From: Eledone cirrhosa
Taxonomy: Eukaryota
Direction: 5' to 3'
Length of the DNA stretch: 64,000 nt
Assembly (NCBI GenBank): GCA_964016885.1
Contig: OZ024740.1
Location: 74,896,001-74,960,000 of the forward strand
The position numbers and the translations under genes were made by a program. The notes beneath the pieces were generated by a model, which made no database searches, had not been told where the DNA came from, and worked only from the letters and a program-made list of their open reading frames with translations. Of the stretch, positions 2,528-60,499 are shown in pieces; the stretch's first letter is position 1; each line of letters begins with the position of its first letter.

Positions 2528-2667
2528 ATATCACAGAAAAAAAAGAGAATCAGTGTTGCGACGAATGGAATTTATTGGACATATTACAATCGTAATATTA
2601 CGATTGTAATATGTCCAATGAATTCCATTCGTTGGAACACTGATTCTTTCTTTTTTTTCTGTGATAT
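2528..2667. repeat. Spacer-less palindrome of about 140 bp centred at 2596/2597
   Basis: atatcacagaaaa...caatcgtaat|attacgattg...ttttctgtgatat. Confidence 0.85.
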
Positions 2668-3042
2668 ATATGTATGTGTGTGTGTGTGTGTGTGTGTGTG
2701 TGTGTGTGTGTGTGTGTGTGTGTGTGTGTGTGTGCGTGCGCGCGTGCGTGCGCGCGTCTGTGTGCACGAAATCTCAGTCTCCAGGTAGTGGCTGATGAGG
2801 AAGCTGATGCTTTTGTTCATTTAACCCACGTATTTCGTACTTTTCATGTGCAATTTTGCTATATATATATATATATACGGGAGAGAACAAGGGAAAGAGA
2901 GGGGGGAGCGAAGGAGACAGAGGGGAGGGGGGGGAGAAAGCTAAAGAGATAGATAGACAGACAGACAGACAGACAGACAGACAGACAGACAGACAGACAG
3001 ATAGTTAGATAAATATATATATAGAGATAGATAGATACTTAC

Positions 3043-3115
3043 ATTATTACCACAGTATGTTCCTATCAGAGCCCCATTATCTGATTTACCATCGTATAGT
3101 TTCACAAAATCATAC
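3043..3115 (-). CDS. BMP1: Tolloid exon: CUB5 middle ([24 protein letters not shown])
   Basis: YD.V.LYDG...G.YCG motif; acceptor gccag, donor gtaagt; 73 nt. The remaining CUB5/stop exon was not found to the left. Confidence 0.93.
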
Positions 3116-57800: not shown

Positions 57801-59923
57801 TGAAACCCACAAAGTTTTTTACTGCCAATCCACCTACTAATATAAAAATAATGCACAATACAAATGTAAACAATGTAAAAGACGCCAAGACATAACCATT
57901 GTAAGGCAACAATCAAATTCCTCTATGTTCATTACACGTTAAAACGAGATTGCTTTAGCATCATATGTAAAAGTCAAAATCAACAGTTTGAAATCAGTCA
58001 TTGCCCCCCCCCCCCTCCACACACACACACAGACTTTCCTCTCATTTATGGCATTTATAGCCCTTTCTCCTACTTTTCTATACAGTCAGATCTGCCCTTC
58101 TTTACCCCTTCCCCACGGTTCATTGCTTAGTTTCGATCTTATCCTTTTTTTCGTTTTTCTTTTTCTTCCATATTTCCATCAATATTTGTAATGTTATTTA
58201 TACAACTGTGAATTGATTTATTGTCTGTAATTCTATTATAACATAAAATTATGCTTATGTGAAAAAAAATAAGTTGTAAAATCTCATCACATTATTAGAA
58301 CATACTGATTTAAATCATCCGAAAAATATATACTGACTATTTTTTATTTACTCTTTAATCAAGGAGGGAAGAGCAGAGCTCCTGGCCTGTCTTCATGGCT
58401 TTCATGATTGATGTGAGGGAGGAAGGGAGGTATCATAAAACAGGAGACTTGGTCCGAATGCCTGCAATAAAGTGAACTTTGCTAAAATGACACAAAGACG
58501 GTTGTTAGTATTAAACCGGGCAGCCGATTAAGTTTACAAACCTAGTGGACTACAGCGTGATTTGAACTCAGAACACAAAGAAAGGAGGAAAAGCAATGTT
58601 GACCACAGTGGGCAATGAACTAGTAGAGACAGTCAGAACTAATACTGCAAGGAATGTTGTTCTATTCGCTAACAACTCGCCGATTATTTGAATGACTTAG
58701 CAAATACCATAGGTGAAGCGGTTTCAGGAAATACAGCAGTGCCTCATTTTTGTGAATGCTCAGTCTTAGTAATGGGGCAGTATACATATATATATATATG
58801 AGAGAGAGAGTAGATATATTTACAGGCTAAAATATAAGTAGATGAAACTCCGTCGATTTCGACGACGATTATTCCCGTTGATAGGCCTACGGAACAGCCA
58901 ACTCGGTAAATTAATGTGTATGTGACTATATACTCCACAGACACGTGTATCCTTAACGATACTCAAAGTATGTAACAAGTCTGGCGCTTTGAGTTACATG
59001 TACAGTCCATCTGACTCGTGTCTAAACGGTTTCTGTAAACCAAATTTCACGAAAAATGCTTGAGGCAACCCAAACATAGTATGTAAAATGGTAGCACACA
59101 CACACACACACACACACACACACACACACATATATATATATATATATATATATATATATATATATATATATATAAATGTATGTATGTTTATATGCACATT
59201 GCTCGCTTTATATGCACATTGCTCGCTATATATAATAAAATGAGCAAATAAAGGTCCATTCGAAGAATGTTTCCTATATGTACCATTCTAAGCCACTTTC
59301 TATTTAATATAGATCGCCAGAGAATCAGTGAGTTGAAAATGGTTTCATTTCAACCTTCTCATGTGAAGCATACCTGGTTACCATTTGGCCGCATGCTAGC
59401 CAAATCTTATTCAAATTACATTGCACCATATGGTTTTAAACAATGAAGGCAGTGTTCCAGCATGGCCTTAACAGCGATGGTTAAATAATAGCGAATCCTC
59501 TGTCAGTTTCTACGATGAACATTTAGTCATTTGATTAACTGAATATACTACACGTTATATTAACGTTATGTTGGCTGAGTATTCCACGGACACATGTACC
59601 CTTAATGAATCAGAATATGCATGACTCAATATAGGACAAGGTTGGACCTTTGAAATGCAGGTAGTATAATCCATCCGATAGGTTTCCATACAGCTTCTGT
59701 CTACCCAATTTCACTCACAGGCTTGGGTTGACTTGAGGTTATGGTAAATACGTTTTTATCCAAGATGCTACGTAGTGGGAGTGAACCTTGGATGAACTTC
59801 TTAACCACTGAGCCATGTTTGCTTTATTTCGGCTAAACTAAGCAAAAGAACTAAAAAAAAGTTGGATATGTGCAAAGACATATTCAAACTTTTGTTTGAA
59901 TGTGTCTTTGCACATATACATTT

Positions 59924-60007
59924 GCATATCTGATGAGATGTCGAGTCCGGCCATGGTCATCATGATTGTACCCTGAGCTGATCGATATTGAAACGATTGT
60001 AATATGC
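59924..60007 (+). ncRNA. Type-I hammerhead ribozyme motif, complete, with minimal stem III
   Basis: Stem I GCAUAU/AUAUGC; core CUGAUGA (59930-59936); stem II GAUGUCGA/UCGAUAUU; GAAAC (59990-59994); loop GAUU; GUA cleavage triplet (59999-60001). Confidence 0.85.
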
Positions 60008-60499
60008 CAATAAAGTTTATAACAGTGACTTCGATCCTACTTACTTTTATTCACACTTTGCACTCTACAATCCAACACAAGACGGACCTTGTAACAGCAT
60101 CGAGTGCTTGGAACAGCGAATAGCTTGTAACTGTAGTTAACACTTAACACACACACACGAGTGTGTGTGTGTATGTACATATGCATGTATGCATGTGTGC
60201 ATCCATGCCTGTGTTTACATTTGTATCTGTGTTTGTGTTTACGTACCTTAGCTTAGCGGTTCGACAAAAAAGTGATAGATAAAATAAGTACCATACTTGA
60301 AAAAAAAAAGTACTGGGGTTGATATGATCAATTAAATCAAGGCGATACCCACACTATGGTCGCAGTCAAATGACTGAAACCAGTCAAAGTTTAAAATAGC
60401 AAACGAGTATATCCGAACTTGTTTTACAATCTAACAATGCAGTCAATTAAGCATTATATGCTATATTGGCTCTTAACACCCTGTTTAGCAAGAAATATC

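Follow-up and report, generated by a model that had tools for sequence, protein, structure and literature searches.

Hammerhead-carrying fold-backs in a 64-kb stretch of the Eledone cirrhosa genome are almost certainly truncated, inverted copies of Hydra-clade Penelope-like elements

The Locus and Its Fold-Back Elements

The stretch of Eledone cirrhosa DNA studied here (the window) covers 64 kb of the assembly GCA_964016885.1 (contig OZ024740.1, positions 74,896,001 to 74,960,000; contig 1 in this work). The DNA is intronic and belongs to a minus-strand tolloid/BMP1-like gene with astacin, CUB, and EGF exons; Pfam recognized astacin (with HExxH), CUB, and EGF-Ca in the five exons scanned. All of the elements under study are found within introns of this gene or beside it (Table 1). 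They are short fold-backs with whole or partial hammerhead ribozyme motifs, which an initial annotation had read as traces of a Penelope- or retrozyme-type system. We conclude, with near certainty, that they are 5′-truncated, 5′-inverted copies of autonomous Penelope-like elements (PLEs) of the Hydra clade. At least five separate PLE families are represented in the window, and probably six or seven. They are named A, B, C, D (at 23–25 kb), E (14 kb), F (59.9 kb), and H (2.6 kb).

Comparison of the window with itself by BLAST revealed local inverted repeats at 2528–2667, 3462–3580, 13325–13443, ~14.1–14.5 kb, 23345–24877, 25977–26570, 28443–28728, 31944–32084, 52228–52591, and 59863–59920, and nearly all of these adjoin a microsatellite. 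Together with a motif scan, this recovered the annotated fold-back layout and the complete hammerheads at 14285, 24781, and 59924. The layout had been described as common to all families: the fold-backs and microsatellite flanks hold, but the family C elements at 13.1 and 50.3 kb have no inverted arm, and the fold-back at 59.9 kb is only ~25 nt long. Similarly, the family A copies of the window hold only the 3′ half of a hammerhead, and the core is missing from the family B copies at 13.3 and 26.0 kb. The families had also been called unrelated in sequence. At the DNA level only the elements at 59.9 and 2.6 kb cross-match, which are indeed related, as annotated, yet belong to separate families; the open reading frames (ORFs) of the other families, however, are 38–52% identical to that of family A at the protein level.

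Links to Reverse Transcriptase and GIY-YIG Coding Sequences

A tblastn search of the window, for which four linked proteins served as queries, detected no reverse transcriptase (RT) or GIY-YIG sequence, in agreement with the initial annotation, and no element coding sequence is present there. The 3.0-Gb assembly was searched with each family, giving 1,592–3,034 first-look candidates per family, of which 40 were scored and 30 fetched, followed by an outward walk. The fetched loci, numbered L001–L307, amount to 1.26 Mb.

Families A, B, C, D, and E could each be linked to an ORF of their own encoding RT and a GIY-YIG endonuclease (EN). The autonomous partner that the initial annotation had not identified is thus present elsewhere in the genome for five families, and its proposal of a Penelope-like origin is borne out for these and, more weakly, for family F. 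For family A, all 20 loci found with a GIY-YIG fragment have a family A pseudo-long terminal repeat (pLTR) ~1.2 kb downstream on the same strand. The junction running from tail to hairpin to ORF was predicted from a partial copy of this family and then gave 298 genome matches, against 0 for a control. At one locus (L306), head-to-tail units of 3,542 nt that are 99.77% identical carry an open 719-aa ORF with the YRDD motif; such intact, near-identical tandem units suggest that family A is young and likely active. In family D, the tail runs into RT in 3/30 loci, one of which (L031) reads pLTR, tail, ORF, 3′ untranslated region (UTR), pLTR. The ORF of family C was found 41 nt past the tail in 3/30 loci, with a complete element in L192. 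The succession of pLTR, tail, and ORF start was observed in 2/20 loci for family B and in 4/20 for family E, for which L286 and L287 contain complete units. The ORFs beside family E in L194 and L198 were set aside as neighboring insertions. Unit lengths in these families are ~3.3–4.8 kb, the tails are 60–130 nt long, and partial tandems forming pLTRs are found in L031, L192, L286, L287, and L306.

Family F is old, with 71–88% identity among its matches. A helicase fragment, which we take to be PIF1/Helitron-like, lies inside a family F 3′ UTR (L200:1680–2020).

Membership in the Hydra Clade

Among 7,999 candidates scored, 802 were homologues, including a named one from Argonauta, which together with the likeness to Hydra-1_Obim fits an octopus or a near relative. 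RWR is present in families A, B, C, and D, in place of the RWK of the clade, and is broken in the E and F copies that were read. SDKT (DKT, not DKG) was found in families A–E, as was the CxCX5C linker, which also occurs upstream of family F in L200; the CX2-5CxxC form is absent. The (I/V)Y..YIG motif is present in A, B, C, D, and E, the EN being C-terminal with no N-terminal EN. The EN region is flanked by CxxC and CxH, and CCHH is absent, as judged by eye against the published alignment. The structural model of the family A protein reached a predicted local distance difference test score (pLDDT) of 93.8 from a 114-row alignment, and its best PDB match is telomerase RT (E 1e-8). Pfam recognized GIY-YIG in the three homologues scanned (two above the cut-off), but not in the family A protein.

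Taken together, RWR, SDKT, YRDD, CxCX5C, the C-terminal GIY-YIG, CxxC, and CxH agree, as far as sequence motifs go, with the definition of the Hydra clade. The published clade, which includes Hydra-1_Obim, shares the C-terminal GIY-YIG, RW(K/R), DKT, CxCX5C, and the CxxC/CxH around the E/N of the EN, and likewise the type I hammerhead in the pLTR, (TA)n insertion, partial tandems, the inverted 5′-truncated copy, and the tail (Craig et al. 2021, PMC8557442). The same source calls Hydra-clade elements "generally short". The 3,542-nt unit of family A exceeds the clade's length of <3 kb, a soft trait, as do our units in general, and our tails compare with 30–40 nt in the clade. Its supplement lists one octopus family, without a pLTR, whereas at least five families with pLTRs were found here, and short copies number in the tens of thousands.

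Several points weigh against this placement. The assignment to the clade is one by motifs and alignment. Pfam did not recognize the RT and EN of the ORFs of the window families, and a PDB sequence search did not detect the RT. The ORF link of family F consists of one decayed locus (L200), with F arms in three of seven further loci (8/20 examined), and none was shown for family H, whose longer copies have the two-arm layout and a full hammerhead core.

Hammerhead Motifs

The annotated positions 14285, 24781, and 59924 mark where stem I begins, and the cores follow from 14296, 24784, and 59930; mirror cores are present in the inverted arms at 14224(−) and 23438(−). A type I descriptor, purpose-made and with two variant cores added after they had been seen, matched six sites in the window against a mean of 0.53 (maximum 2) in 30 dinucleotide shuffles. 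The canonical core alone gave three sites against a mean of 0.17 (maximum 1). The motif with its core at 24784 folds by hand, with stems of 3/7/3 bp, and falls below the score threshold of the descriptor. Other CUGANGA words of the window (2792, 3788, 21818, 30488, 63391, and others) failed the type I descriptor. In an Rfam scan of the window, no hammerhead was found among the best 150 of 283 matches, and those listed were spurious matches to microRNA (miRNA) hairpins.

The canonical core is found in families B, D, E, F, and H (for H, in longer genomic copies). Positions below follow the conventional hammerhead numbering. The family A core is UUGANAA, with U3 in 38/40 and A8 in 40/40 fetched copies, which means that the 3–8 pair is kept; at position 7, all four bases occur genome-wide. 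This compensatory U3-A8 core is known from Schistosoma PLEs (PMC4209133). The family C core is CAGAAGA, with A4 in all 47 copies. No report of a natural U4A hammerhead was found in the open-licence literature, while a U4C variant is on record (PMC3088659); by its sequence, the U4A core of family C may be a new functional variant. Neither the U3-A8 nor the U4A core is among the Hydra hammerheads in the part of the supplement of PMC8557442 that was compared. The U·U at the base of stem II in families B and C is frequent in Hydra-clade hammerheads (PMC8557442). Searches with the canonical core alone overlook whole families, namely A and C.

Covariation of the stems was found in part. Compensatory pairs occur at two of six stem I positions among 12 family B copies across subfamilies, whereas stems II and III are invariant and thus uninformative. 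Stem III is 4–6 bp long in families A, B, and C, and the modeled stems suggest that these hammerheads could fold as monomers. Free folding gave the ribozyme fold for family A and, roughly, for D, while B and C did not adopt it. In PLEs, hammerhead activity can be weak or aided by protein (PMC4209133, PMC11167929). The Cercyon PLE of Schistosoma (Cervera and de la Pena 2014, PMC4209133) resembles our families in its U3-A8 pLTR core, in opposite-strand motif pairs 100–700 bp apart, and in that most motifs belong to truncated PLEs. It differs in that the motifs are minimal and dimer-dependent. The placement of type I hammerheads in pseudo-LTRs by the initial annotation is supported.

Dozens of further type I hammerhead families were observed in the 1.26 Mb of fetched loci. 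At least four more of them have U3-A8, and families stack within shared (TA)n runs.

Target Sites and the Two Arms

The outer arm ends at a TA run in 224/239 cases, against 12% of random 30-mers of the window, which upholds the earlier claim of insertion into (TA)n. Target-site duplications are unreadable inside (TA)n. Two 3′ end points are fixed in every family, the end of the pLTR and the end of the tail, each with a short TA-like sequence. In full tandems, a small hairpin and then the start codon come after the tail end. The hairpin directly follows the tail in families A, B, C, D, and E; free folding yields it in A, B, C, and D, with a rival fold in E. It is an even call whether this hairpin is the binding site of the element protein.

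We collected 158 deduplicated head-to-head junctions from families A–E; both arms could be classified in 117, the other 41 being at a locus edge or broken. A tailed arm is paired with a tail-less arm in 111/117, both arms are tail-less in 4/117, and both are tailed in 2/117. Within the first 100 family A matches on contig 1, there are 21 head-to-head pairs at ≤60 nt and no tail-to-tail pair at ≤100 nt. For the 111 mixed pairs, the arms end within 20 nt of each other in 80, the tail-less arm is longer by >20 nt in 16 (by >100 nt in nine of these, and up to 2.3 kb), and the tailed arm is longer in 15. At the base level, the 34 family A junctions divide into nine with a longer tail-less arm, 15 with equal arms, and 10 with a longer tailed arm. 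Longer tail-less arms are also seen in near-identical copies with recurrent junctions.

The initial annotation had explained the inverted arm by snap-back of the cDNA. If a cDNA folds on itself, its tail-less arm cannot extend beyond the tailed one in the 5′ direction, so that two separate cDNAs fit better, and on balance we favor separate cDNAs as the origin of both arms. We regard twin priming as the best explanation overall of the 5′-inverted Hydra-clade PLE copies in (TA)n, and a probable one. The element protein would nick each of the two strands within a TA run, and two cDNAs would start at the two fixed TA-like sites of the RNA, one at the pLTR end and the other at the tail end 60–130 nt further. 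Both would run to the 5′ end of the RNA and then be joined head to head.

Twin priming is known from LINE-1, where a 5′ inversion results when each target strand primes a cDNA. The LINE-1 arms cover different parts of the RNA, whereas here the arms overlap and start at two fixed internal sites. A closer precedent is the Poseidon PLE of Anolis (PAc), for which two RT start sites flanking the tail, as well as nicking and extension of both target strands, were seen in vitro (Frangieh et al. 2024, PMC11167929). It also shares AT-rich targets and a start near a stem-loop. The start sites of PAc are reported not to be homologous to the cut DNA, while both end points are TA-like here and match (TA)n. 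The PAc hammerhead was dispensable for insertion in vitro (PMC11167929). No statement on twin priming in PLEs was found in the open-licence literature, and the making of tandem and inverted one-tailed PLE insertions is presented as an open question in PMC8557442 and PMC3846280.

There are observations that speak against separate cDNAs. The junction loci were chosen by queries that hold the tail or long arms, and among incidental copies only, the tail-less arm is longer in five, the arms are equal in 30, and the tailed arm is longer in one. In addition, an inserted long palindrome can be shortened on one side, and this too would leave either arm longer. A Hydra-clade origin with the inverted arm made by snap-back or self-priming of a single cDNA, trimming by the endonuclease at the pLTR end, and later central deletions that make the arms unequal is a rival explanation. 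The near-equal arms of 80/111 pairs would be expected from it, and several junctions carry short templated repeats. Self-priming was proposed for rotifer Penelopes (PMC3846280), and the tail has been ascribed to endonuclease resolution (PMC8557442). Snap-back leaves unexplained the arms in which the tail-less side reaches further 5′, seen as often as the reverse, and it is at odds with the two start sites and the extension of both strands in PAc. We consider it unlikely.

5′ Ends and the TATA Box

In most families, the 5′ ends of the copies cluster ~25–35 nt past a TATA box. In 28/34 family A junctions, the most-5′ end falls on an initiator-like word, 25–30 nt downstream of the first T of the TATA box. 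Ends at 20–40 nt past TATA were found in 29/43 incidental copies of A, 12/17 of B, and 8/23 of C, and in 20/43 query copies of E and 9/18 of F. Exact genome-wide counts before and past TATA+30 are 5,224 and 62,608 for family A, 149 and 722 for E, and 46 and 537 for one B subfamily. In some tandems, the sequence leaps from within the ORF back to the hotspot, the pattern expected of template switching at the end of an RNA. None of the sequencing runs listed is recorded as RNA. In contigs of four runs (of unrecorded kind), the depth over family A changes in a step both at the hotspot and at the end of the tail, and loose (TA)n ends occur at the two fixed sites; this depth gives no copy number and is taken as agreeing with the assembly counts. 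The spacing between a TATA box and its transcription start is taken as generally accepted. A TATA box with an initiator was noted in the pLTR of rotifer Penelope (PMC3846280), and the Drosophila Penelope element has an internal promoter (PMC2377424).

We find it fairly probable, judging from these ends, that the hotspot ~25–35 nt past TATA is the transcription start, so that a protein-binding site near the mRNA 5′ end would give mostly promoter-less copies of 60–300 nt and full-length copies would need read-through into a second tandem unit. The mRNA would start in the pLTR, and the protein would meet its binding hairpin 60–300 nt from the cap. Both cDNAs would then run off at the cap and leave promoter-less stubs, a full copy requiring read-through into the second unit. 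No statement that explains short PLE copies by a TATA box or transcription start was found in the open-licence literature. In family A, the putative start falls inside the stem II loop. The 5′ copy of the mRNA itself could then not form a hammerhead, and only the 3′ copy in read-through RNA could cleave; we lean towards the view that the hammerheads cleave read-through RNA.

The hotspot is sharp in family A, moderate in B, E, and F, weak in C, and not seen in D, and the counts on either side of TATA+30 compare different words of different mutability. A rival cause of the hotspot would be an RT stall at the hammerhead stems, or a ribozyme-related break. The hotspot does lie in the stem II loop in family A and at stem I and the core in B, and the ends of C cluster in stem II. 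In E and F, however, it is 35–60 nt upstream of the hammerhead, yet at about an equal distance from TATA, and the hotspot differs from the cleavage site, over which the copies run freely. Stall or break is accordingly doubtful as an explanation.

Retrozyme-Like Arrays and Other Origins

The initial annotation had also allowed for a retrozyme-type system. It is very improbable, and for families A, B, C, D, and E largely refuted, that an unidentified PLE mobilizes the window elements in trans as non-autonomous retrozymes. The idea draws on hammerhead tandem arrays of 299- and 310-nt units with (TA)n flanks elsewhere in this genome and on the description of retrozymes as PLE derivatives (bioRxiv 10.64898/2026.07.22.740005). 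Non-LTR retrozymes share the type I hammerhead and the relation to PLEs (Cervera and de la Pena 2020, PMC7229834; Li et al. 2026, bioRxiv 10.64898/2026.07.22.740005), but consist of tandem monomers. The window copies are single units, with no tandem array of hammerhead monomers among them; five families are contiguous with their own ORF, and the A copies of the window are without half of the ribozyme. They are better described as truncated copies of coding elements.

Tandem non-coding monomers with a complete hammerhead were found outside the window, in L305 and L307. L305 (G000:C2:356030062-356031892) contains seven 299-nt head-to-tail units, deletion derivatives of family A, each with a complete U3-A8 hammerhead (with a shortened stem II loop), a tail, and a hairpin. 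We read L305 as a retrozyme-like array that arose from an autonomous PLE. A non-coding unit of 310 nt, absent from the window, forms arrays in L307, L189, and L190 (G000:C4:190385000-190392500; C14:22533500-22536600). There are 12 copies in L307, ~99.8% identical within the array; the unit has a B-like hammerhead with a palindromic stem III, and the arrays have an inverted 5′ arm and (TA)n flanks. They are a probable true retrozyme.

Miniature inverted-repeat transposable elements (MITEs), relics of terminal inverted repeat (TIR) transposons, or chance hairpins in microsatellite-rich DNA look alike in having short inverted repeats with TA flanks, but are refuted by the ORF links. Here the 5′ ends are where two unequal arms meet, only one of them tailed, and the elements extend into RT and GIY-YIG rather than a TIR transposase; the hammerhead motifs exceed shuffles, and stem I covaries between B subfamilies. 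Fragments of such PLEs could pass for MITEs or miRNA hairpins.

For PLEs and the Hydra clade, inverted 5′-truncated copies, tails, (TA)n targeting, and pLTR hammerheads are already published. New here are statistics in favor of twin priming and cap run-off, the two variant cores, an intact young family, and the retrozyme-like arrays. The tens of thousands of short fold-backs might be a fossil record of the PLE reaction, that is, of twin priming at two fixed TA-like sites next to a conserved hairpin, of cDNAs running off the mRNA at its capped 5′ end, and of end joining. Family A, probably active, with U3-A8 and its start in the stem II loop, would have given the array of seven 299-nt units by deletion, a direct step from PLE to retrozyme, and the U4A core of family C may be a new functional variant; we hold this larger picture no more strongly than its opposite. 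Thousands of young copies have end points that fit a specific and testable model, the genome also has intact young family A parents suited to expression in vitro, and Hydra-clade elements form a large, multi-family part of this cephalopod genome.

Features of the Window

Table 1. Exons and elements of the 64-kb window. Exon limits are open-frame bounds; (+) and (−) give the strand.
Positions	Feature	Arms	Hammerhead and remarks
10267–10845 (−)	tolloid/BMP1-like exon		
12053–12244 (−)	tolloid/BMP1-like exon		
15689–15910 (−)	tolloid/BMP1-like exon		
17523–17696 (−)	tolloid/BMP1-like exon		
20976–21266 (−)	tolloid/BMP1-like exon		
22820–23056 (−)	tolloid/BMP1-like exon		
26678–26929 (−)	tolloid/BMP1-like exon		
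36341–36700 (−)	tolloid/BMP1-like exon		
38174–38527 (−)	tolloid/BMP1-like exon		
2451–2667	family H fold-back	tailed 2451–2596 (−), tail-less 2597–2667 (+)	remnant: stem III and cleavage site only
3414–3580	family A fold-back	tailed 3414–3520 (−), tail-less 3523–3580 (+)	3′ half of U3-A8 hammerhead; tail end swapped for other sequence
13126–13195	family C single arm	tail-less (+)	U4A core, 13128–13178; (CA)n on one side, (TA)n on the other
13270–13436	family B fold-back	tailed 13270–13380 (−), tail-less ~13389–13436 (+)	core cut off
14119–14237	family E inverted arm	tail-less (−)	complete, 14164–14235
14244–14494	family E tailed arm	tailed (+)	14285–14355, core at 14296 and stem I of 11 bp, cut predicted after 14344; pLTR ending near 14395, tail reaches 14494
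23351–24107	family D inverted arm	tail-less (−)	23397–23441
24120–24968	family D tailed arm	tailed (+)	3′ UTR; 24781–24825, predicted cut after 24822; AATAAA; pLTR end 24871, tail 24872–24968; parent element L031
26021–26090	family B remnant	tail-less 26021–26069 (−), joined to last ~20 nt of tail (+)	
26109–26525	family C fold-back	tail-less 26109–26289 (−), tailed 26285–26525 (+)	U4A core, 26134–26183 (−) and 26365–26414 (+)
28406–28728	two family A insertions in a single (TA)n	first: tail-less 28421–28465 (−) and tail fragment 28489–28530 (+); second: tailed 28527–28670 (−), tail-less 28671–28728 (+)	
31870–32076	family B fold-back	tailed 31870–32012 (−), tail-less 32019–32076 (+)	CUGAUGA core is the start of both arms
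50233–50547	family C direct fragments (+)	no inverted arm	decayed, 50294–50343
52326–52534	family A fold-back	tail-less 52326–52390 (−), tailed 52390–52525 (+)	(TA)n on both flanks
59863–60148	family F element (+)	~25-nt fold-back	59924–60006, core 59930, predicted cut after 60000; AATAAA; tail reaches 60148

Fragments of a diverged family A subfamily, with the 3′ half of the hammerhead, lie at 3655–3727 and 32110–32190, sharing (TA)n runs with other insertions. Another fold-back family is present at 3724–3880, with 747 first-look candidates, two fixed end points, and a CUGACGA word with no downstream GAAA. Its longer copies run on into CT-rich sequence, and two have GIY-YIG-like sequence ~1 kb further.

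Additional local inverted repeats were found by self-BLAST at 10141–10187, 19682–19848, 38867–38911, 48893–49426, and 51046–51111; the one at 19.7 kb had no match among the fetched loci. A high-copy repeat, presumably SINE-like (resembling a short interspersed nuclear element), occurs at 1345–1906, 15196–15607, 21379–21550, 35409–35575, 41109–41215, 48580–48776, and 53171–53319. It too starts at TA-rich sites, and has a fold-back at 1640–1893. Finally, a 2.9-kb tandem array, rich in (GTT/GTG/ACT) and with a period of 9–63, occupies positions 4287–7206.

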